From positions 432,572 to 496,571 of the forward strand of contig JANBVJ010000001.1 of the NCBI GenBank assembly GCA_024239055.1: DNA of 64,000 nucleotides. The letters run 5' to 3'. Numbering within the stretch: the first letter of the stretch is position 1; the number at the start of each line of letters is the position of its first letter. The translations under genes were made by a program, and so were the position numbers. The notes beneath the pieces are model-generated. The model was not told the origin of the DNA and did not search any database. It was given only the letters and a program-made list of their open reading frames with translations. Source of the DNA: Patescibacteria group bacterium. GTDB taxonomy: Bacteria > Patescibacteriota > Minisyncoccia > Minisyncoccales > UBA10102. Below, piece after piece: positions 1,347-9,957 of the stretch.

Positions 1347-1811
1347 CTACAACTCATACCGAATCTCCATGATTGTGTACACTACCTTCACGGGAGAGGA
1401 AACCTTCACCGCATCTCCCACCTTCGCTCCCATAAACGCCCTGCCCACCAAAGACTCGTTGCTGATTCTACCCTCGGTCGGATTTGTCTCAAGAGAACCT
1501 ACAATGGTAAACGTATCCTCCTGTTCATCAACACTAAAGATAACGGTTGCTCCAATATTTACCTCGTCCCGTCTTGTCTTGGGAGGCTTTCGAATGAGCT
1601 CTACGCTCCGAAGAATCTTCTCGTACTCTGAGACTCGTGCCTCAAGCAGGCTCATGTCTTCTTGAAAGGCAAGGTACTCTGGGTTCACGTCTTCTGAATG
1701 CCAGATTGCTGGAGTCTCTCCTCTGGTTTTTGCCTCCCGAAAAGAGATAAGCTGTTTATGCTCTTTTTCTATACGTCCTAATCCTTTTTTTGTGAGATAG
1801 TATTTTTCCAT
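1347..1811 (-). CDS. greA: Transcription elongation factor GreA
   Basis: 154 aa with an N-terminal coiled-coil (LTKKGLGRIEKEHKQL). The C-terminal domain motif I...SLVGRAFMGAKVGD.V.V matches GreA/GreB (SPLGKALLGKKVGD). Confidence 0.85.
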   Translation of the reverse strand: MEKYYLTKKGLGRIEKEHKQLISFREAKTRGETPAIWHSEDVNPEYLAFQEDMSLLEARVSEYEKILRSVELIRKPPKTRRDEVNIGATVIFSVDEQEDTFTIVGSLETNPTEGRISNESLVGRAFMGAKVGDAVKVSSPVKVVYTIMEIRYEL

Positions 1812-2063
1812 TGTGGTTTTATAAAAACTGGCCTTTGGAGAAGCCAGGTTATTGATTGAAAGTGTCCATAAAATTGGAGTGTCAAGAAACCTGGTTATCG
1901 TCTCGCAAAATAATATTACAAATTACAAAATATATATAAATAATTAGAAACTATGATTGGGAAATTTTCATAAGGTCTATAGCTGTATTCTAGGTAGTTT
2001 AGTTTATCACCATCAAAGAACCTCGTCAAGGGCTAATAGTTTATTTTCTGAACAGAATCTTCT

Positions 2064-2400
2064 AAAAGAGTTTAAAATATTAACCAACCTTGCGGATACT
2101 GTTAAATGCCTAGCTTTTCTACTAGGTTGTATTATAGTTCATGGCAAGAATCCTTGTCAAGCCCTACCTTATTATTAATTGAAAAAGTGGGGAACCACTT
2201 GGGGATAAGGGGAAGTTCTCCAACGTTCACCTCTATCTGTTTTACCCCTTTCTTCTCCTGGATCTCTTTAAGGACTTTCTCCCGTCTTCAAAAAGCTCTA
2301 TTATCTCGTCTTGGAGCACACCGAATGGAAAATCAAATTTTAACTTGTTTCTCTTTGGCATGGTTCTTTGATATCTCACAGTAAGTCTTCCCGCATTACC
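2064..2400 (-). pseudogene. Collapsed remnant copy of the HisG-like/Lrp fusion gene at 5699-6862, including its 3' flank and a trace of the argH 3' end
   Basis: 2064-2091 matches 5658-5685 (aaaagaRtttaaaatattRaccaacctt). 2178-2262 matches the 3' end 5699-5785. 2270-2298 matches 6081-6110. 2299-2361 matches the 5' end 6781-6843. The minus-strand ATG at 2361 gives MPKRNKLKFDFPFGVLQDEIIELFEDGRKS followed by a frameshift and stop. Confidence 0.6.
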
Positions 2401-2547: not shown

Positions 2548-3726
2548 ATGCAAAAAGTAATATTGGCATTTTCCGGAGGATTAGATACATCATTCTGTGT
2601 TCCGTATCTGATAGAACAAGGTTACAACGTAATTACAGTTACCGTAGATACGGGCGGTTTTAGCAATAAAGAGCTACGGGAAATTGCAATAAAATCAAAA
2701 AAACTTGGTGCAAGCAAGCATTATCAAATCGATGGGAAAAAATCAATATTTGAAAAAATCATCTCTTTTATCATCAAAACGAACAGTCTCTACGAAAATT
2801 CATATCCCAATATGTGTTCCGACAGATACACTATTACAGAGGAAGCAGTAAAAATTGCTAAGAAAGAAAACGCTAATGTTATAGCTCATGGATCAAGCGC
2901 AATGGGAAACGATCAGGTGCGCTTTGATGTAGCATTAATGAGTATTGCTCCGGAAATGAAAATAGTTACTCCTATCAGGGAGATAGGTGGCAGTAGAAAA
3001 AAAGAACAAGAATATTTAGAAAAAAAAGGATTCCCTGTTACATCACTAAATAAAAAATATTCTGTAAATCAAAATATTCTAGGAATTACTTATTCGGGAT
3101 CAGAAATAGATCAAGTGCAAGAACCCGATGAGTCAATGTTTTTGTGGACAAAATTGACTAAAAAGAATAGTTCATATCTTAAGTTAGAGTTTAAGAAAGG
3201 GGTTCCTGTTGCTTTAAATAATAAGAACATGTTCGGGGCAGAAATTCTTATTAAGCTCAATAAGATTGCCGGCGCCTATGGATTTGGTCGGGGGTATTAT
3301 ACGGGAAATTGCGTTATTGGGATCAAAGGACATATCGCTTTTGAAGCTCCAGGTATCCTTACGTTAATCCAAGCTCATATAGCGCTTGAACAGCTTGTTC
3401 TCACTAAGACACAGTACACTATTGGAAAATTTATTAGCGAACAATTTACGGACTTACTTTATACAGGAAAATTCTATGATCCATCTATGAAAGATATAAA
3501 GAGCTTTATTGATTCCCAACAGCAATATGTTAGTGGGAGCGTGATATTAAAACTTAGCCCTCATCAAGTTCAAGCGGTTGCAGTTACATCTCCATTCTCT
3601 CTTATTAATCCCAAAATTGCTACTTATGCACAAAGTTCTTCTTGGACCGCAAACGATGCGAAAGGATTTATCAAGCTATACGGTTTGCAAAGTAAAATTT
3701 CAGCGGAGTTGAAAAGAAAGGATTGA
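2548..3726 (+). CDS. argG: Argininosuccinate synthase (divergent ArgG)
   Basis: N-terminal ATP-pyrophosphatase motif AFSGGLDTS, then HGSSAMGNDQVRFD (canonical ATGKGNDQVRFE). The 392 aa length fits ArgG. Confidence 0.8.
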   Translation: MQKVILAFSGGLDTSFCVPYLIEQGYNVITVTVDTGGFSNKELREIAIKSKKLGASKHYQIDGKKSIFEKIISFIIKTNSLYENSYPNMCSDRYTITEEAVKIAKKENANVIAHGSSAMGNDQVRFDVALMSIAPEMKIVTPIREIGGSRKKEQEYLEKKGFPVTSLNKKYSVNQNILGITYSGSEIDQVQEPDESMFLWTKLTKKNSSYLKLEFKKGVPVALNNKNMFGAEILIKLNKIAGAYGFGRGYYTGNCVIGIKGHIAFEAPGILTLIQAHIALEQLVLTKTQYTIGKFISEQFTDLLYTGKFYDPSMKDIKSFIDSQQQYVSGSVILKLSPHQVQAVAVTSPFSLINPKIATYAQSSSWTANDAKGFIKLYGLQSKISAELKRKD

Positions 3727-3821: not shown

Positions 3822-4334
3822 ATGCAGAACCTCACCAGTTCTGGGACAGAAGTGCTCACAGAAGAACAACTGAAGCAGTTGCCTAAAGAAGAGAAGCTGG
3901 AGCTTGGGCGACAAGTAAGCGAATTAATAGCCACACACAGAGAAACTATGCTGCAGTATACTGTGCGGCAAGTGGAAGAAATAATAAATGATGGTCGCGC
4001 TATTGTGGTGGTGGATTCTTCTCAAACGTTGTGTGCATTTGCACAATTATCGCCCTGGTGTGATCAGAATGGGAAAGCAAAGGCAATAGAATTTAGAAGT
4101 TGGATATCAAATAGAAATGGTGCGGGATTACTGACTCTACAGGGCGCTATTGCTTTAAATCAAAAAAAATATCCAAGCATTCCCATGTACGCAGTAATAG
4201 AGGAAAAAAATATACGCGCACAGCAAATTGTTATCAGAGTAGGCGCAAAGGAAGTGCCAATGCCCGATTGTATGAAAGTAGTACTAAAGGCCGGCGATCA
4301 ACCGGCTCCCATAAGAACATATCATATAATTTAA
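3822..4334 (+). CDS. Hypothetical protein, possibly a GNAT-type acetyltransferase
   Basis: 170 aa. The segment NRNGAGLLTLQGA loosely resembles the GNAT acetyl-CoA motif (Q/R-x-x-G-x-G/A). It lies between arg-related genes. The assignment is weak. Confidence 0.35.
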   Translation: MQNLTSSGTEVLTEEQLKQLPKEEKLELGRQVSELIATHRETMLQYTVRQVEEIINDGRAIVVVDSSQTLCAFAQLSPWCDQNGKAKAIEFRSWISNRNGAGLLTLQGAIALNQKKYPSIPMYAVIEEKNIRAQQIVIRVGAKEVPMPDCMKVVLKAGDQPAPIRTYHII

Positions 4335-4419: not shown

Positions 4420-5523
4420 TTAAAGATGTATTGAACGCAAGAACGCCTCAAGGATATCTGCATATTGTCTAAAACTTTCAATCTCCGCATACTCGTGTTC
4501 GGCGTGCAAGCCAGCACCGCAAATTCCAAAGTCCACGCCTCCTGCATCCGCATTGGTCCAGTGTTGTACGTCACTACCATGAGGCAGTGCGAAGAAAAGA
4601 GCAGGCTTTTTCGTTACCAATTTTACCGTTTTTGATAGAAGTATAACATCAGGATGACGAGAGCTTGTGAAATGCGCTTCTCCAAAAGAAAATCTTTTTA
4701 CCAAAACTCGTTTATCAATTTTGGCAATATTATTTTGTATCATATTGGGATCGTCTTGTGGAATCCAACGGATTGACAATCTGCCCATCGCATCGGCAGG
4801 TACAATATTATTAGCGCGGTTAGTAGTTGTTATGATTGTTGGAGAACAGGTTGTTCTCCAAATACCATCTGGACCAGGATACATCTGTGCTGCCAATAAC
4901 TGTACACGTAAAACTTGAAAGAGGGCATTCTTGTCCTCACCATCATAAGCGGTATGCCCTCCTTGCGTATTTGCAGATAGCTCAAGAGTTAATAATCCCT
5001 TGTGCCGGTTGCCAATTTTTAAATTTGTTGGTTCTCCCGAAATAACAAAATCTGCTTTTACTCCTCTCTCAACCTGATATTTTGCGCCATTAAGCCCTCC
5101 AATCTCCTCGTCCGTAGTTAAAGAAAGACCGATTGGATATGGAAGTTCTTTTGCTAAATCTTTAAAAACAGAAATAAGAATAGCTGCACCAGATTTCATA
5201 TCTAGGGCGCCTCTGCCATATAATCTAGAACCTTTTAAAAACGGAATAAACTGCTTTTTATCTTGAGCCAGCACAACATCTAGATGCCCATGTAATAATA
5301 TTCGAAATTTATCTGGCCGATTTTGTTTATTAAAAAATAATATGCTTGGAATTAATTCTCCCTTTTGGTCTTTTCTTGAAAATTCCTGATAAGAATAATT
5401 AGGTAGTTCTTTTTTTGCTAGGTTTAGGACTCTGTGTAATGCATCTGGTTTCTCTTTAGTTGACGAGATTCGAATAAGCCTTCGCGTTAAATCTAATATT
5501 TTTTTATTTCGCTGATTTTGCAT
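4420..5523 (-). CDS. M20-family metallopeptidase (ArgE/DapE-type deacylase)
   Basis: Motifs LLHGHLDVV, GRGALDMKSGAA, TTDEEIGG and SGEPT are the classic M20 metal and catalytic residues. Confidence 0.8.
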   Translation of the reverse strand: MQNQRNKKILDLTRRLIRISSTKEKPDALHRVLNLAKKELPNYSYQEFSRKDQKGELIPSILFFNKQNRPDKFRILLHGHLDVVLAQDKKQFIPFLKGSRLYGRGALDMKSGAAILISVFKDLAKELPYPIGLSLTTDEEIGGLNGAKYQVERGVKADFVISGEPTNLKIGNRHKGLLTLELSANTQGGHTAYDGEDKNALFQVLRVQLLAAQMYPGPDGIWRTTCSPTIITTTNRANNIVPADAMGRLSIRWIPQDDPNMIQNNIAKIDKRVLVKRFSFGEAHFTSSRHPDVILLSKTVKLVTKKPALFFALPHGSDVQHWTNADAGGVDFGICGAGLHAEHEYAEIESFRQYADILEAFLRSIHL

Positions 5524-5698
5524 AAGATTAATGAAAGTATCAGCTTCCAGTTTCCAACTACAAAGACCTAAACCATCTTGTTGTTATCCCAACATAACAG
5601 AGAATCCCTGGAGATTTTGCAGTCTACACTCAAAGCTATAAAAAATAGTACATATCCAAAAGAATTTAAAATATTGACCAACCTTCCCTATCTTATTA

Positions 5699-6862
5699 TT
5701 AAAAAGGCGGGGGGATCCGTTTGGGGATAAGGGGAAGTTCTCCAACGCTCACCTCTATCTGTTTTACTCCATTTTTCTCCCGAATCTCTTTCGTTATAAA
5801 ACTCTCAAGATTACCCAAGTCTGAAGCAAGCACTCCCACAATAAGGTTGTATCTCCCTGAAGTTTTCACAAGCATATACACAAAGTGAAAGCGTTGGAGC
5901 TGCTCTACAAGCTCTGCTAAAGCCTTACTGTCTGCCTCCACCGCGATTGTAGCACTCATGGCATACATCTTCTCAATATTCATGAGACCCTGAATCCGTA
6001 CAATATCTTTTTGCAACAGCTTCTCTATTCTTTTTTTGACTCCAACCGAACTTAATTTTGCATCTCTGGCGATTTCGACAAAGGACTTTCTCCCGTCTTC
6101 AAAAAGCTCCCGGAGGATCCCGAGGTCAACGTCATCAAGATTAGTCGTACTCCATGGAGTATAGGGTTTCACTATCTGCTCCTGCTGAGAACGGGCTCCC
6201 CTCAGGCGGGTTGCGAGTTCTTGAATCTTCTTTTTCTTTGTGGCATCCTGCAGTGCCTTTGAGCTCGCAATCAGAATCACTGAGCTCTCAAACAAGATTT
6301 TGAGAACTTTCAGGTTGTAGGCTGCCAGCACATCCCCTCTTCTGGAAAACTCCACAATGGCATCTGCAATCACCCCCACCTTGGATTCGTTCACCAAGGT
6401 ATCAGAATACAGAATTTCAGCCTGGATCTTACTTTTCCGCAAAAACTCTTTGGTGATTTCGGGAATCCTGGTAATGATTTTCTTACCCCGAAGGCCTCTC
6501 GCGCTTGCAATCTTGGAATCCTTAGGAACCGCCAGCACCACCCTGGTCTTCCCCCAAGGGGACTTTTCATACTCAAGATTGCATACTTCTTTCACCTTCT
6601 CTGTTTTTGCCTCCATAACCGATGCTTCCGTGGAAATGCCCACATCCAAAATTCCCTTCTCAATCATGGAGGATATGGCAATTGGACGGACAAAAAGGCA
6701 TGTGATGTCAGGATCGCTGATTTCAATCTTCTGGAGCGCCTGATCAGTTTTTACCTTGTATCCTGCAGTTTCGAAAAGTTCTATTACCTCATCTTGAAGT
6801 GCACCAAGTGGAAATCCGAGTTTTAAGCTACTTTTTCTTGGCATATTTCTTTGAAATTTCAT
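5699..6862 (-). CDS. Fusion protein: HisG-like (ATP phosphoribosyltransferase fold) N-terminal domain joined to a complete Lrp/AsnC regulator (HTH plus RAM domain)
   Basis: Residues 1-215 follow the HisG pattern (LKLGFPLG.L......L...G; FVRP.AISSMIEKGILDVGIS; VVLAVPKDS; VGVIADAIVEFSRRGDVL.A..L; ILIASSKAL). Residues about 240-387 give LDDVDLGILRELFEDGRKSFVEIARDAKLSSVGVKKRIEKL plus an AsnC-type ligand domain. Confidence 0.75.
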   Translation of the reverse strand: MKFQRNMPRKSSLKLGFPLGALQDEVIELFETAGYKVKTDQALQKIEISDPDITCLFVRPIAISSMIEKGILDVGISTEASVMEAKTEKVKEVCNLEYEKSPWGKTRVVLAVPKDSKIASARGLRGKKIITRIPEITKEFLRKSKIQAEILYSDTLVNESKVGVIADAIVEFSRRGDVLAAYNLKVLKILFESSVILIASSKALQDATKKKKIQELATRLRGARSQQEQIVKPYTPWSTTNLDDVDLGILRELFEDGRKSFVEIARDAKLSSVGVKKRIEKLLQKDIVRIQGLMNIEKMYAMSATIAVEADSKALAELVEQLQRFHFVYMLVKTSGRYNLIVGVLASDLGNLESFITKEIREKNGVKQIEVSVGELPLIPKRIPPPF

Positions 6863-8012
6863 GATAAGCCTGACGGAAAGGTACTCCTTTTTTTACAAGG
6901 AGATACACCTCATTGGTTGCGTAAAGCTCAGGAATTAATCCTTGTTCACATTTCTCTTTGTTCGCCTTAAGGTTTTTTACCACAAGAGACATAATTGACA
7001 GACATTCTTTGGTTACTATAAAGCCTTTCATTACAGGGTCCTTAGTGAGTTGAGAGTCTCTGTGGTAGCCCGAAATAAGGTTGCTGGTTAGGCTTTTTAT
7101 TTGAAACTCATATGAAAGCACAAGATGATACTTTGCTCGCACAAGTTCTAAAACGTCGGGGTTTCGCTTCTGTGGCATAAGAGAGCTTCCGGTACAGAAT
7201 TCCTCTGGTATCTCAAAATATCCAAACTCGGGCATGGTAAAGAAGATGAGGTCTGAAGAAAGTTTGTTCAGATCAAACATAATCTGGGATAAAGCATGGA
7301 GAAGTGTTGATTCAAATTTCCCCCTGCTGTTTTGAACATAGATAGGATTCTCTTGTACCTTTTTGAAATTCAAGAGTTTTGCTATGTACTCTCTGTCGAT
7401 ATTTAGAGGCACGCCGTATCCTGCTCCTGTTCCTGAGGGAGACTGATTTATAAGCTCAAATGCTAAATCCAGCACCTTAAGATTATCGGCCATGGATTCT
7501 ACAAATGAATCTCCCCATAGAGCAACAGAAGAAGGCATTGCTTTCCTCGTATGGGTATAACCAGGAAACTGAACTTGCCCGTACTCTATCACAAACTTCT
7601 TGATTTCTTCCATAAACTCCTGAGTCAAGCTTCTGCAATCCTTGATCTCCTCTTTGTAATAAAGCCTGAGGGCGGTTAATACCTGATCATTTCTTGAGCG
7701 ACCTGTATGAATTTTCTTCCCCAGGTCTCCAAGGTGTCTTGTGAGATGGTTTTCAATTGCTGTGTGGCAATCCTCCTCTTCTTTCTCAATTTTGAACTCT
7801 CCCTTTTTATTGAGTTCGAGAATGTTCTGAAATTCTTTGACAATTTTCTCAACTTCTCCTTCTGTGAGCACGTTAATCTTCCCAAGCATTTTTGCATGAG
7901 CCATAGAACTTATGCAGTCATAGGAAACAAGCGTCTGGTCTAAAACATGGTCATCTCCTACGGTAAAGTTCTCGACGTCTTCATTGAGATTGTATTCGTT
8001 CCAGAGCTTCAT
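6828..8012 (-). CDS. argH: Argininosuccinate lyase (short form)
   Basis: Contains GRSRNDQV and the lyase signature GSSLMPQKRNPD. At 394 aa it is shorter than typical ArgH at the C-terminus. It overlaps the downstream fusion gene by 35 nt. Confidence 0.9.
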   Translation of the reverse strand: MKLWNEYNLNEDVENFTVGDDHVLDQTLVSYDCISSMAHAKMLGKINVLTEGEVEKIVKEFQNILELNKKGEFKIEKEEEDCHTAIENHLTRHLGDLGKKIHTGRSRNDQVLTALRLYYKEEIKDCRSLTQEFMEEIKKFVIEYGQVQFPGYTHTRKAMPSSVALWGDSFVESMADNLKVLDLAFELINQSPSGTGAGYGVPLNIDREYIAKLLNFKKVQENPIYVQNSRGKFESTLLHALSQIMFDLNKLSSDLIFFTMPEFGYFEIPEEFCTGSSLMPQKRNPDVLELVRAKYHLVLSYEFQIKSLTSNLISGYHRDSQLTKDPVMKGFIVTKECLSIMSLVVKNLKANKEKCEQGLIPELYATNEVYLLVKKGVPFRQAYHEISKKYAKKK

Positions 8013-8013
8013 A

Positions 8014-8307
8014 TTACTGCTTCATTCTCTGCTGGCGGAGTGCGTTATTAATAAGCCTAATAGCATTCACCTTGATAAATCCGATAGCATCTTTGGGGTT
8101 ATATCCTCCTGCAACATCCATGCTGGATTGAGTCTGATCGTACAACGAGGAAGAGAGTCTTCTTTCTCGTACTGCATCAAAGTCATCTTCCTGCCCAAGA
8201 TCCGCAGTAAAGGCCACAACCTCATATCCTTTGGCAATCAACCAGTATAAAATAACAGAGGTATCCAATCCTCCGCTGTAGGCTAAAATAAGTTTTCCTT
8301 TTGCCAT
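8014..8307 (-). pseudogene. argG: Argininosuccinate synthase with a large in-frame internal deletion (N-terminus joined to the extreme C-terminus)
   Basis: [39 protein letters not shown] matches the ArgG N-terminus. SLYDQ...[19 protein letters not shown] matches the ArgG C-terminal tail. The roughly 300 aa in between are absent. There is 1 nt between its stop and the argH start. Confidence 0.75.
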
Positions 8308-8383
8308 AGAAGTTTATTTTTTAACTAATTAATAATATCGTGCTTGTTATCCTATTATATGATACCACAAATGTCAATTTACT

Positions 8384-9631
8384 TTAAAACAAGCTTTTTT
8401 GTGTTATGTCTTCTCTCTGCTCCCCCTCCTTGAAAATGGATATCTTGCCATACTCCCCGTCATACCCGGGCTCAATTTGTACCTTTCCCTCCCGAATCCG
8501 CATAATCCCCTCCACCACCTCGGGCGAGGCAACATCTTTCAGTTCCAAAGGAGTTGCATCAAGCAAGACATAAAACTCATTCTTTAAAGAAGAGACAACC
8601 TTTTCATACTCCTCTTGTGTTCTCTTTGTTGCCACGCCAACACTAAAGGCCTCTGCAATAATCTCTTGCAAAGGAATCAAGTGTTTGAAAGGAACGGCAT
8701 TCTCGGGCTTCTCTCCCTCTTTTCTGTCTGCTAACTCCCCCACCCGATTTAAGACCCCAATAACCAAGGGTTTTTTGCAGGTAGGACAGATGTTATTATG
8801 TTTCTTTGATTCTGCTGGAGCAAAGCTCAATTTGCATAGGCGATGTCCGTCATAGTGATACCTTCCTTCTTCTGGAAAGAACTCAACTGTAAAAAGAAAC
8901 TTCTTGTTGTCTTTTTTCTTTAAAACATCAGAGATTCCTTTATAGGTTTTTTCTGTATCAAAAATATTAGCTTCCCTTCCAATCTTAGCTAATGAATGGG
9001 AATCGGAGTTGCTGATTAAGTTAATATCATCTAATGCAGAAAGCCGCCAGTTCATTGCGGGATCTGACGAAAGTCCTGTCTCAATAGCAGTAATATATTT
9101 TGTGTATTCGTCAAAGCACTCCTCTATGGTATCAAATCCGGACTTTGAACCAAAAATGGAGAACCATGGAGTCCAGGCGTGAGCTGGCACGATCATGCAC
9201 TCAGGGGAGGCATCAAGTGCTATTTTCAATACCTCCTTTGCATCCATGCCCAGTATTGGTCTGCCATCAGACCCAAGTTTGCCCCGAATACCGAGTTGAG
9301 CGTTTATCTTTGCCACAACAGCTAGCGATGGAGCAAAGATTAATAGATGAATCCTCCTAACCCTGTCATTCTTTGAGTAAATACAGCTTACCTCTGTGGT
9401 TAAAATAAACCTTGTCGGAAGCGTAGAACCCTTGAGCTTATACAAGCCCTGTTCTGACTCCTCTAACTTTTTAGATAACTCCTTAAACCACTCTGGATGT
9501 GTAAAGTCGGAAGCTGAAATAACGTCAATCCCTTTTTTGTGTGCCCATACATCAAGATTCTCCAGATTCATATCAGGAGAGGTGGCTCTCGCATACTTTG
9601 AGTGAATATGAAGGTCAGCAATAAATCTCAT
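8384..9631 (-). CDS. PHP-domain nuclease, endonuclease Q-like (TIGR00375-type)
   Basis: MRFIADLHIHSKYARATS is a PHP metal motif. Downstream HAWTPW and SDSHS motifs are present, plus a zinc-finger segment C-x(18)-CPTC. I chose the start at the internal ATG 9631, which forms an ATGA overlap with the upstream gene, rather than 9706. Confidence 0.7.
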   Translation of the reverse strand: MRFIADLHIHSKYARATSPDMNLENLDVWAHKKGIDVISASDFTHPEWFKELSKKLEESEQGLYKLKGSTLPTRFILTTEVSCIYSKNDRVRRIHLLIFAPSLAVVAKINAQLGIRGKLGSDGRPILGMDAKEVLKIALDASPECMIVPAHAWTPWFSIFGSKSGFDTIEECFDEYTKYITAIETGLSSDPAMNWRLSALDDINLISNSDSHSLAKIGREANIFDTEKTYKGISDVLKKKDNKKFLFTVEFFPEEGRYHYDGHRLCKLSFAPAESKKHNNICPTCKKPLVIGVLNRVGELADRKEGEKPENAVPFKHLIPLQEIIAEAFSVGVATKRTQEEYEKVVSSLKNEFYVLLDATPLELKDVASPEVVEGIMRIREGKVQIEPGYDGEYGKISIFKEGEQREDITQKSLF

Positions 9632-9957
9632 TTTCTCATTAGCTTTATGCCAAGAGAAGATATCTGAGTTCCAGCAAATATGAGTATCCCTGCAAATACA
9701 GACCATAAGCCAAAATTGAGCATACGTGGAATGGCACCAGAAGGCAGAAGATTCTCAAGCTGACTTTCTAAAAGCTCGGGAATGTTATCCAATGAAAATG
9801 CCTCCAAAGCAGCTGAAGACTTAGTAATTGGAACCATAAAGATTTCAGGAGGAATAGCTGACCCAGTGAAAAAGGTGAAAGACAAAAAGAGCGTGTAGGC
9901 AATGAGTACAAGTCCAGCAACTAGAAGTAAGATACCAATAATTTTCTCTGTAGTCAT
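9628..9957 (-). CDS. Small membrane protein (two hydrophobic helices)
   Basis: 109 aa with an N-terminal helix ILLLVAGLVLIAYTLFLSFTFF and a C-terminal helix LWSVFAGILIFAGTQISSL. It abuts its neighbours with 0-nt and -4-nt spacing. Confidence 0.5.
   Translation of the reverse strand: MTTEKIIGILLLVAGLVLIAYTLFLSFTFFTGSAIPPEIFMVPITKSSAALEAFSLDNIPELLESQLENLLPSGAIPRMLNFGLWSVFAGILIFAGTQISSLGIKLMRK

Follow-up and report, generated by a model that had tools for sequence, protein, structure and literature searches.

How did a domain of the ATP phosphoribosyltransferase (HisG) type come to be joined to a complete Lrp/AsnC regulator inside an arginine-gene cluster of a patescibacterial genome, and does the product work as an enzyme or as a regulator? 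This question is raised by a single gene in the window, that is, the whole stretch of 64,000 nucleotides that was analysed. The gene lies on the minus strand, which the first-pass annotation had left out, and an ATG at 6844 (Met7) may be its true start. The gene and its parts are as follows.

5699..6862, minus strand: HisG-A::Lrp fusion gene, 387 aa (open reading frame, translation, domains, homologues, purifying selection)
6248..6826, minus strand: HisG-type two-domain core, aa 13-205, of the HisG-A paralogue (profiles, fold, signature changes, tree clade)
6797-6814, minus strand: altered N-terminal loop FPLGAL in the HisG core (signature comparison)
6326-6367, minus strand: altered PRPP loop ADAIVEFSRRGDVL in the HisG core (signature comparison)
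6140..6244, minus strand: long connecting helix (aa 207-231) and disordered linker (AF2 model, linker comparison)
6149-6163, minus strand: YTPWS in the linker, a mark of the fusion junction and remnant of the PRT-domain end in the ancestral PRT-Lrp gene
5996..6139, minus strand: AsnC-type winged HTH, aa 242-289 (Pfam, PDB sequence search, linker comparison)
6017-6052, minus strand: HTH recognition helix SSVGVKKRIEKL (Pfam, PDB sequence search, comparison)
5741..5959, minus strand: RAM (Lrp/AsnC ligand-binding) domain, aa 302-374 (Pfam, PDB search, AF2 model)

The protein consists of a divergent HisG-A two-domain core, an AsnC-type winged HTH and a RAM domain, and both the HisG pattern and the complete Lrp/AsnC module that had been read from the sequence were borne out. 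All three families of this architecture scored above their thresholds: PF01634 (HisG) on aa 60-222 with 87.9 bits against a gathering score of 25.5, PF13404 (HTH_AsnC-type) on aa 242-282 with 40.8 bits against 27, and PF01037 (AsnC_trans_reg) on aa 308-373 with 31.4 bits against 25. A second HTH profile, PF13412, gave 33.9 bits against 21.9 in the HTH region (aa 242-289), and the NCBIfam model TIGR00070 (hisG) gave 99.8 bits on aa 13-199 against a cut-off of 75.75. In PDB sequence searches the protein matched HisG 2vd3 (E=7e-17), and the Lrp-type protein PH0140 matched aa 239-373 (E=5e-16); solved Lrp structures matched both the HTH and the RAM parts. The AF2 model (mean pLDDT 80) had ATP phosphoribosyltransferases as all 50 of its best Foldseek PDB matches, with the catalytic cores aligned at TM 0.78-0.83 and rmsd 2.8-3.4 Å over ~220 columns (5ub9: TM 0.83, 2.8 Å, 225 columns). 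Because the best fold matches are all of this one enzyme, the core is HisG rather than a generic substrate-binding protein, for which the competing Pfam family Phosphonate-bd reached a sub-threshold 17 bits. The HTH region is modelled as three helices, and the RAM domain (aa 302-374) shows the order E-H-E-E-H-E at pLDDT 80-90. HisG_C, the usual C-terminal domain of long-form HisG, is absent from the fusion, which has HTH and RAM instead, and Foldseek laid the RAM domain over HisG_C.

The same three-domain architecture was present in ~33 protein clusters, all from Patescibacteria and 47-99% identical, which come from independent ENA, JGI, NCBI and Logan assemblies. Because of this recurrence the read-through between the two halves is genuine. 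An assembly error, which the first-pass annotation had named as an alternative, is ruled out by it together with the low dN/dS of both halves (window versus L001, 0.18 in the HisG part and 0.25 in the Lrp part; L004 versus L013, 0.05 in each half). Moreover, 84 positions are invariant among 14 diverse members. A search of 185,579 species genomes returned only two fusion loci, and among 1.84 billion cluster representatives only one covers both halves. One assembly with the fusion is GCA_022563395.1 (671-kb contig JADFNM010000001.1). Literature on HisG-Lrp fusions, on RAM with HisG and on HisG in the Candidate Phyla Radiation yielded no relevant description, in keeping with the earlier remark that no described example was known.

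The surroundings of the gene are given below.

8349..8377, minus strand: promoter-like site TTGACA-17-TAGGAT, 5′ of argG relic-argH-fusion (consensus match only)
8014..8307, minus strand: argG relic of 97 aa, made of the N-terminal ~50 aa and a piece of the C-terminus; first in the operon (profile searches)
6828..8012, minus strand: argH, short form of 394 aa (TIGR00838, 291 bits against a cut-off of 279.5; adjacency conserved in relatives)
4420..5523, minus strand: M20 ArgE/DapE-family deacylase, downstream of the fusion (profile searches)
2548..3726, plus strand: intact argG (profile searches)
2189..2379, minus strand: decayed second copy of the fusion gene, directly upstream of greA in the ancestral position (tblastn, sequence, open reading frames)
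1347..1811, minus strand: greA (Pfam; locus comparison)
576-1271: HD_3 hydrolase gene, after greA (Pfam)

As had been noted, argH overlaps the start of the fusion gene by 35 nt, and the two are probably co-transcribed. The argG-like and M20 neighbours were likewise recovered; the open reading frame at 3822-4334, earlier called GNAT-like, gave no family match in profile searches, so that label is unsupported. The M20 gene is not a conserved neighbour in relatives, and greA is the conserved downstream neighbour in every Lrp-carrying version of the locus. In the decayed copy, the N-terminal ~30 aa are joined to ‘DGRKS’ and the C-terminal ~30 aa; this copy is shattered and the one at 5699..6862 is intact, so that real decay is seen side by side with an intact gene. 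The earlier statement that no other histidine genes lie nearby was upheld: when nine proteins of the his pathway and prs, taken from related Patescibacteria, served as tblastn queries, neither the 64-kb window nor the 10-kb flanks of L001-L008, which are fusion loci and argGH-linked long-form loci, gave any hisA/H/F/I/D/B/C/N, prs or canonical hisG. None of the 120 closest HisD proteins was on a long fusion-bearing contig (a weak negative), and profile searches of the fusion neighbourhood showed no HisZ-like gene.

The origin of the fusion can be read from related Parcubacteria, in which the order is hisA-(hisH)-hisF-hisI-HisG-A-HisG-B-hisD-hisB-hisC-hisN-[PRT-like domain + Lrp]-greA; hisG is thus present there in tandem, as the divergent paralogue HisG-A followed by the canonical HisG-B. 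This full operon, with the terminal PRT-Lrp gene before greA, is found in L017, L009/L010, L018 and L019; the order argG-argH-HisG-A(long)-stand-alone HisG_C-greA in L014, L015 and L007; and argH-argG-fusion-greA-HD_3 in L004, L012 and L013, where L012 has a hisA relic upstream of argH. The uncharacterised Parcubacteria PRT-Lrp proteins (~290 aa, P0054-P0120, for example P0061 and P0087) carry an orthologous Lrp module, 55-70% identical to the Lrp half of the fusion, behind an N-terminal PRPP-fold domain, and occupy the same position immediately 5′ of greA-HD_3. Thus the nearest Lrp relatives of the fusion are N-terminal fusions too. They differ from it in that their N-terminal domain is not HisG but a small type-I phosphoribosyltransferase-like domain (PF00156, 26.6 bits), and in that the gene closes an intact his operon, overlapping hisN. 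It is well supported that an in-frame deletion, reaching from the C-terminal regulatory domain of HisG-A through the PRT-like domain, joined the HisG-A core to the terminal Lrp module. Of the two readings offered in the first-pass annotation, that of a HisG with an exchanged regulatory domain therefore holds as history: the comparison supports a long-form HisG that lost HisG_C, with an Lrp module taking over this place through the in-frame deletion inside the his operon.

Moreover, the fusion probably occurred twice, because the junctions differ between the two subgroups: group 1 keeps ‘Y-T-P-W-S’, which matches the PRT-domain end (‘YAPWS’) with the same spacing, and in group 2 the first HisG_C strand, ‘LMLH’, is retained. 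In neighbour-joining trees, in which the branching order of subgroups had weak support, the HisG-A clade received 97% bootstrap, and the two fusion groups were jointly monophyletic in 48% of the bootstrap replicates for HisG and in 0/300 for Lrp. Hence a single origin is disfavoured, because of the two different junctions and the absence of bootstrap support in the Lrp tree.

Although the core is HisG by identity, it is not a canonical one. Against 2vd3 the HisG part of the window protein scored 65 bits and the canonical tandem partner HisG-B 136 bits; on the HisG profile HisG-B reached 149.5 bits and the window protein approximately half of that, and HisG-A stays at about half the score of HisG-B across HisG profiles and structures. 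Compared with canonical sequences (E. coli numbering), HisG-A carries K13 to L/I, P59 to A/S, G73 to T, G153 to T and D169 to E, each a position at which 8-9 of 9 canonical sequences agree. The PRPP-loop signature D-[LIV]-x(2)-[ST]-G-x-[TS]-[LM], PROSITE PS01316, which was compared with nine canonical sequences, is not matched by the window loop E-F-S-R-R-G-D-V-L (EFSRRGDVL). In this loop the Asp is Glu in all fusions, the first Thr is I/R/V in the group of the window (P-loop Thr173 reads I/R/V there), and V/I stands in place of the last Thr/Ser in the members displayed from the two fusion groups. In the window, the ‘P-K-G-[RS]-L’ loop near the N-terminus reads F-P-L-G-A-L, with loss of its basic residues, and the equivalent of E. 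coli K13 is L/I in all fusions. Residue roles were taken from PMC9734150 and PMC10795190 and from conserved-column analysis. In Psychrobacter arcticus HisG, Arg32 and Arg56 are the leaving-group arginines (PMC9734150), and the equivalent positions of the window protein, mapped by alignment offset only, carry no Arg; the Arg equivalent to Arg73 is retained as R59. In the proposed check of HisG catalytic and PRPP-binding residues, the PRPP loop and K13 were lost and R54, D68, G70, E79, T129, D165 and G174 (E. coli numbering) kept. Conservation within the family is strong in the cleft loops, of which SD-x3-NESKVG and GKKIITRIP, for example, are invariant. Because many HisG residues are kept and the cleft loops are so conserved, residual or altered catalysis is possible. 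A canonical HisG-B adjoins HisG-A wherever the his pathway exists. In the long forms of HisG-A the regulatory domain is better conserved than the core (73% versus 52%), which favours a non-catalytic role. Because the HisG part of the fusion comes from a divergent paralogue, lacks signature positions and lies at a site from which the his operon is gone, it is more plausibly a sensor. A second sensor of a regulator is thus likelier than an enzyme, and in functional terms the other early reading, a transcription factor that recruited a HisG-type sensor, is the likelier one.

Judged from sequence and model, we give an even chance to the reading that the fusion protein is a one-component regulator of the Lrp family with a HisG-derived, non-catalytic sensor. 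The HisG-A core would no longer produce PR-ATP for histidine synthesis and would bind a ligand in its inter-domain cleft, most likely one that HisG already binds, such as an adenine nucleotide, PRPP or a related phosphoribosyl compound. The RAM domain, structurally in place of HisG_C, would provide oligomerisation and a second, amino-acid-type effector site, and the HTH would set the transcription of the argH/argG-fusion operon and/or of the adjacent greA region. The HisG-A core would in this way functionally substitute for the PRT-like sensor domain of the ancestral regulator. A fuller version is less likely: HisG-A may already be a pseudoenzyme sensor, the regulatory paralogue of HisG-B, in Parcubacteria with a his operon, and may have been welded to Lrp twice, independently, as genome reduction collapsed the operon, in a swap of a type-I for a type-IV PRT-like sensor, giving a factor responsive to PRPP or adenylate and to amino acids that acts on argH/argG and/or greA in salvage-dependent organisms.

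Several known systems resemble parts of this regulator. The long-form HisG-L enzymes (Methanothermobacter thermautotrophicus 2vd3, Campylobacter jejuni 4yb5, E. coli 1h3d) have a homologous two-domain core (TM ~0.8) and a long helix leading into a C-terminal ferredoxin-like effector domain, HisG_C, whose place the RAM domain appears to occupy in the modelled fusion. Unlike them, the fusion has HTH and RAM for HisG_C, a divergent core, no nearby his genes and linkage to argH/argG. Lrp/AsnC regulators (PH0140, Pyrococcus furiosus LrpA 1i1g, E. coli AsnC 2cg4) share a normal-length HTH_AsnC and RAM, aa 239-373 of the fusion, but are typically stand-alone proteins of ~150 aa, whereas the fusion bears a 230-aa N-terminal enzyme-derived domain. 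Bacillus subtilis PurR combines a winged-helix DNA-binding domain with a PRT-fold effector domain that senses PRPP. PurR and PyrR offer an analogy only, a PRT fold re-used as a non- or weakly catalytic sensor tied to nucleic-acid binding, without homology to the fusion: type I PRT as opposed to HisG type IV, another DNA-binding family and another domain order. LysR-type regulators join a winged HTH to a type-II periplasmic-binding-protein-like effector domain, the fold class of the HisG core; their domain order is opposite, their HTH family is another, and the extra RAM domain occurs only in the fusion. Finally, HisZ, a catalytically dead HisRS paralogue, regulates short-form HisG and senses histidine (PMC9734150, PMC10795190). 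It is a precedent for an enzyme paralogue as a regulatory ATP-PRT partner, to which HisG-A beside HisG-B may be comparable, although HisZ derives from a tRNA synthetase and HisG-A is a paralogue of the enzyme itself, and a HisG-A/HisG-B complex is conjectural.

From PRT-Lrp to the two fusion groups, the HTH and its recognition helix have stayed intact and conserved. The first-pass annotation had suggested a search for palindromic operators in the flanking spacers, and nothing convincing emerged: inverted-repeat scans of the operon's upstream spacer and of the spacer that separates the Lrp gene from greA, compared over 8-12 loci, gave no shared palindrome or operator better than chance. The spacer scans returned only sigma-70-like promoters, with promoter-like sites no commoner than in shuffled sequence, and an AT-rich element AATATTTTAAAYTCTT, common to L001 and the two copies present in the window. 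A recurring CTTGACAAGG..CTTG motif was rejected as an Lrp operator; it is not Lrp-specific, because L014, which has no Lrp, has it too. An Rfam scan of the greA leader region gave no match.

Rather unlikely, in our estimate, is a trigger enzyme comparable to BirA, NadR or PutA, in which the HisG-A core would still catalyse phosphoribosyl transfer (as an ATP-PRT or onto a new acceptor), the RAM domain would have replaced HisG_C as the allosteric feedback site, and the HTH would be an added means of repression. Such an enzyme fits a core that has the HisG fold, exceeds curated hisG thresholds and has a low dN/dS, as it fits the invariant cleft loops and the superposition of RAM on HisG_C; but signature positions, among them the Thr/Ser of the PRPP loop and the basic loop at the N-terminus, are lost and differ from subclade to subclade, every HisG-A that occurs with the pathway has a canonical HisG-B at its side, the neighbourhood encodes no downstream his enzymes, and the offset-mapped Arg32/Arg56 equivalents (PMC9734150) are not Arg. 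HisG-A in the sister lineage L007, L014 and L015 lies beside argG/argH without any DNA-binding domain, so HisG-A has some function independent of the HTH, a point that counts against the reading as a one-component regulator. This adjacency, which recurs in three lineages with differing gene orders, invites a reading that we consider improbable, namely that HisG-A, with HisG_C or with Lrp/RAM, is a subunit that senses metabolites and regulates ArgG/ArgH or some other enzyme by protein contacts, with the Lrp module mainly a scaffold and DNA binding vestigial. The regulatory domain is indeed the most conserved part of HisG-A (73% versus 52% for the core in the long forms) and stand-alone HisG_C reading frames are retained; against this, purifying selection acts on the HTH as it does on the remainder of the protein, the recognition helix shows the conservation described above, and a complex of HisG with ArgG/ArgH has no known precedent. 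That the fused protein is a leftover of operon loss or of chimeric assembly with no selected role is very improbable, for in spite of decay elsewhere in the locus (the argG relic at 8014-8307, the fusion relic at 2189-2379, the hisA relic in L012) and a chimeric-looking long-form sequence, P0034, on a 1.2-kb contig, it is effectively refuted by reading frames intact in the independently assembled clusters down to 47% identity, by dN/dS of 0.05-0.25 in both halves and by the 84 invariant positions, and the relic copy in the window is shattered as opposed to the intact fusion.

Hence the fusion is most likely a metabolite-sensing regulator, rather than an enzyme, that is kept by selection beside arginine genes. 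It is a natural case of a new multidomain regulator born of deletion and not of gene shuffling: as genomes were reduced, an entire biosynthetic operon was lost, its two end pieces were joined in frame, and selection kept the product, apparently twice. The locus also brings to light three undescribed features of Patescibacteria, namely tandem hisG genes of which one is canonical and one divergent, a phosphoribosyltransferase-Lrp regulator family that closes the his operon, and a HisG-like protein kept beside argG/argH after histidine synthesis was lost. The database label ‘ATP phosphoribosyltransferase’ would wrongly assign one step of histidine biosynthesis to such reduced genomes. Should the sensor reading be true, the fusion would offer a handle on how the few retained biosynthetic genes are regulated in these largely uncultured, host-dependent bacteria.

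The HisG-Lrp fusion is a 387-aa ORF whose N-terminal part matches HisG in Pfam (aa 60–222, 87.9 bits; gathering score 25.5) and in NCBIfam (TIGR00070 hisG, 99.8 bits, cut-off 75.75), and whose HTH_AsnC-type (aa 242–282) and AsnC_trans_reg (aa 308–373) domains both lie above the Pfam threshold. In a PDB sequence search, HisG structures matched aa 13–230 and Lrp-type regulators aa 239–373. An AlphaFold2 model (input alignment of 45 sequences, mean pLDDT 80) contains a confident two-domain core at aa 13–205, a long helix at 207–231 and a disordered linker, followed by a three-helix HTH and a RAM domain of the order beta-alpha-beta-beta-alpha-beta. All 50 of its best Foldseek PDB matches were ATP phosphoribosyltransferases, catalytic cores reaching a TM of 0.83 at an rmsd of 2.8 Å. 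Because long-form HisG chains (HisG with its C-terminal regulatory domain, HisG_C) align over ~370 columns, the RAM domain falls at the place of HisG_C. The first-pass annotation had proposed just such a HisG-type domain and complete Lrp/AsnC module, and both stand; by these profile, PDB-sequence and fold matches, a generic binding protein as the identity of the core is ruled out. Judged by homology, the protein is chimeric, part long-form HisG and part Lrp/AsnC family. Its start codon is uncertain between ATG at 6862 and ATG at 6844 (Met7): an AAGGAG lies ~21 nt upstream of the former, too distant for a start there, and the N-termini of the closest homologues agree with the latter. With either start, the gene overlaps the end of argH.

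A search of 5.8 billion proteins returned ~33 clusters with the three-domain architecture (47–99% identity), from independent assemblies and from Patescibacteria wherever a source is named. Among 185,579 species (one representative genome each) the fusion occurred at two loci only, and related long forms at six; of the best 150 hits among 1.84 billion representatives at 50% identity, a single one spanned both halves, the remainder matching the HisG or the Lrp part alone. Purifying selection acts on both halves: dN/dS (Nei-Gojobori) between the window and relative L001 was 0.18 in the HisG part and 0.25 in the Lrp part (dS 0.36–0.39), and between relatives L004 and L013 it was 0.05 in each. Thus the read-through between the halves is genuine and not an assembly error. 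A long-form HisG on a 1,175-bp JGI contig (P0034) is nearly identical over its first ~200 aa to a fusion protein (P0016) and ends in a HisG_C resembling P0035, which points either to a chimeric contig or to a domain swap by recent recombination.

The arginine-gene setting described in the first-pass annotation was confirmed, including the 35-nt overlap with argH; the neighbour called GNAT-like (3822–4334, plus strand, 170 aa) had no match in Pfam or NCBIfam. The features of the window locus are as follows.

1347–1811, greA
2189–2379, minus, shattered second fusion copy just upstream of greA, the ancestral position (tblastn and sequence/ORFs)
2548–3726, plus, intact argG
4420–5523, minus, M20 deacylase
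5699–6862, minus, HisG-Lrp fusion (ORF translation)
6828–8012, minus, argH
8014–8307, minus, argG relic of 97 aa, adjoining argH on its upstream side and made up of ~50 N-terminal aa and a fragment of the C-terminus
8377–8349, minus, promoter-like site
8384–9706, minus, TIGR00375-family gene

The argG relic and the intact argG on the opposite strand point to local rearrangement or replacement. ArgH is short (392–401 aa) throughout the clade (also L004:7585–8790 and L007:8817–9995), and in the window it covers positions 21–385 of the 455-position argH model, missing the usual C-terminal ~70 residues. The shattered copy retains the N-terminal ~30 aa, ‘DGRKS’ and the C-terminal ~30 aa, reading MRYQRTMPKRNKLKFDFPFGVLQDEIIELFE, DGRKS, a frameshift and then KGVKQIEVNVGELPLIPKW, and one of its deletions is bounded by two ‘ELFE’ microhomologies. 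An AT-rich element, GGTTGGTYAATATTTTAAAYTCTTTT, occurs in the 3′ flank of the intact fusion (5655–5685), in the flank of this relic and in L001. The relic at the ancestral position and the common flank element indicate that the locus was rearranged, leaving one intact and one decayed fusion copy.

The closest relatives of the two halves differ: for the N-terminal half they are long-form HisG proteins (50–66% identity), for the C-terminal half ~290-aa PRT-Lrp proteins (~56%). The latter form a widespread family of >60 clusters in which a small type-I phosphoribosyltransferase-like domain is fused to Lrp/AsnC. Features of the relatives' loci (L numbers) that bear on the origin are listed here.

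L009:1434–3203; L010:7931–9700; L017:10013–11772; L018:10070–11748; L019:10019–11786, tandem long-form hisG genes, divergent HisG-A then canonical HisG-B
L011:8001–8882; L017:17655–18521; L009:10838–11167 (cut), PRT-Lrp genes
L007:10884–11150; L014:10988–11236; L015:5245–5499, stand-alone HisG_C ORFs of 82–88 aa directly after long-form HisG-A
L012:7043–7236, frameshifted hisA relic upstream of argH (~70 aa, identity to L010 hisA 73%)
window 1812–2188; L001:11156–11519; L004:11150–11375; L017:18522–18913, spacer before greA

A full his operon is carried by Ca. Paceibacter normanii (L017), L009/L010, L018 and L019, in the order prs (minus), hisA, (hisH), hisF, hisI, the two hisG genes, hisD ... 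hisB, hisC, hisN; it ends with PRT-Lrp, which overlaps hisN by ~40 nt, then greA and an HD_3 gene. PRT-Lrp is thus the operon's last gene and a candidate PRPP- or histidine-responsive regulator of his. Loci L007/L008, L014 and L015 hold argG-argH with HisG-A and a stand-alone HisG_C, followed in L014 by greA. The closest match of these HisG_C ORFs is the C-domain of HisG-B, as if HisG-B had kept its regulatory domain only, and the genomes conserving them (L007, L014, L015) have lost the rest of the operon. The fusion loci L004–L006, L012 and L013 read argH-argG-fusion-greA-HD_3, and the hisA relic in fusion-bearing L012 is direct evidence of his-operon decay. This gene-context series indicates that in the fusion the HisG-A core has been joined to the Lrp module that belonged to the last gene of the operon, the intervening DNA having been removed. 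A tblastn search with the proteins of his operons from related Patescibacteria found no other his gene, either in the 64-kb window or within the 10-kb flanks of L001–L008 (fusion and argGH-linked long-form loci), which bears out the earlier remark that histidine genes are absent nearby. The 120 closest HisD proteins (61–80% identity) are from Patescibacteria where a source is named, one on L017's contig; as weak negative evidence, long fusion-bearing contigs carry none of them.

Two fusion groups are well supported, fus1 with the window (97%) and fus2 (89%). In fus1 the HisG helix stops at ‘...AQE’ and continues as ‘Y-T-P-W-S-x3-L-D-D-I-D-L’, a linker that matches the end of the PRT domain of PRT-Lrp (‘Y-A-P-W-S-L-E-K-L-D-G-I-D-L’) with identical spacing. 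The fus2 junction continues into ‘L-M-L-H’, the first HisG_C strand (‘G-L-M-L-H-A-S’ in long forms), and Y-x-P-W is not present in its linker. Joint monophyly of the groups had 48% support in the tree of cores. In the Lrp tree it had 0/300, and fus1 there tends to group with PRT-Lrp. Junctions and trees suggest, at roughly two chances in three, that the fusion was born by two independent in-frame deletions; one event with later gene conversion may instead account for the pattern.

HisG-A and HisG-B form separate clades in a neighbour-joining core tree (97 and 87% bootstrap), the former taking in every fusion and every argGH-linked long form, the latter sitting towards characterised enzymes. 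Against 2vd3, HisG-B reaches 136 bits and HisG-A members 65 bits; against PF01634 the respective values are 149.5 and 85–96 bits. At signature columns, conserved in at least eight of nine canonical sequences (five solved enzymes and four HisG-B), HisG-A shows K13 to L/I/G, P59 to A/S/V, G73 to T/S, G153 to T/A and D169 to E (E. coli numbering), and retains the family positions R54, D68, G70, E79, T129, D165 and G174. P-loop Thr173 is kept in some HisG-A subclades; the window's group has I/R/V there, giving a PRPP loop that reads EFSRRGDVL in the window. By approximate alignment-offset mapping, the fusion has no Arg at the positions of P. arcticus HisG Arg32 and Arg56, which stabilise the departing pyrophosphate (PMC9734150), and has one at that of the ATP gamma-phosphate-binding Arg73 (PMC10795190). 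In long-form HisG-A, mean identity is 73% in the regulatory C-domain versus 52% in the core; conservation of the HisG-B C-domain is not above that of its core. Tree, scores, lost positions and C-domain conservation point to HisG-A as a putative regulatory or sensing paralogue and not a pathway enzyme, and the tandem may be a catalytic/regulatory pair by analogy with HisG/HisZ. Two public sources label the fusion an ATP phosphoribosyltransferase. It should not be filed as one, since several hallmarks that define a functional HisG are lacking: in the sequence, the PRPP-loop signature and the basic loop at the N-terminus; beyond it, a regulatory partner and the setting of the pathway. A trigger enzyme whose core is still active is an unlikely reading.

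Beyond architecture, homology, selection, origin and context, what we infer is the mechanism. We hold the chance about even that the fusion is a one-component Lrp-family regulator with a non-catalytic HisG-A sensor core. The core would sense a ligand in the inter-domain cleft, the binding site of ATP, AMP/ADP and PRPP in canonical HisG, and the RAM domain, substituting for HisG_C, would provide oligomerisation and an amino-acid-type effector site. The ancestral PRT-Lrp likewise bore a PRPP-fold domain, exchanged, apparently twice, for another PRPP/nucleotide-binding fold, which suggests the conjecture that the sensor was functionally substituted. The recognition helix S-[SP]-V-G-V-K-[KN]-R-[IV]-E-K-L is conserved across PRT-Lrp, fus1 and fus2, and a conserved DNA target is therefore expected. 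All these loci have just one stretch of non-coding DNA in common, the spacer before greA, and this spacer or the operon's own promoter is the candidate target; an operator search of the flanking spacers identified none. The spacer holds two strong sigma-70-like promoters, one a 12/12 match at window 2160–2131. Several loci add a small ORF and, immediately ahead of greA, a G+C-rich hairpin with a T-run, possibly a leader or attenuator. That the protein regulates ArgG/ArgH at the protein level with a vestigial HTH is a reading prompted by lineages in which a HisG-A devoid of a DNA-binding domain is retained next to argG/argH, and we regard it as quite improbable; a neutral leftover, contradicted by purifying selection, is scarcely credible.

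The putative one-component regulator has partial parallels. B. subtilis PurR combines a PRT-fold sensor with a DNA-binding domain, in HisZ a paralogue of an enzyme has become a regulator, and LysR-type regulators join an HTH to a PBP-like sensor; the fusion resembles each by analogy. Literature searches returned no description of a HisG-Lrp fusion, tandem hisG paralogues or PRT-Lrp proteins, and to our knowledge tandem HisG-A/HisG-B in Parcubacterial his operons have not been described. The fusion has the sequence and fold of the Lrp/AsnC family, and we would class it, on a function that we infer, with one-component regulators having enzyme-derived sensors. What is unusual, and well documented here, is its architecture and its birth by operon collapse, probably repeated.
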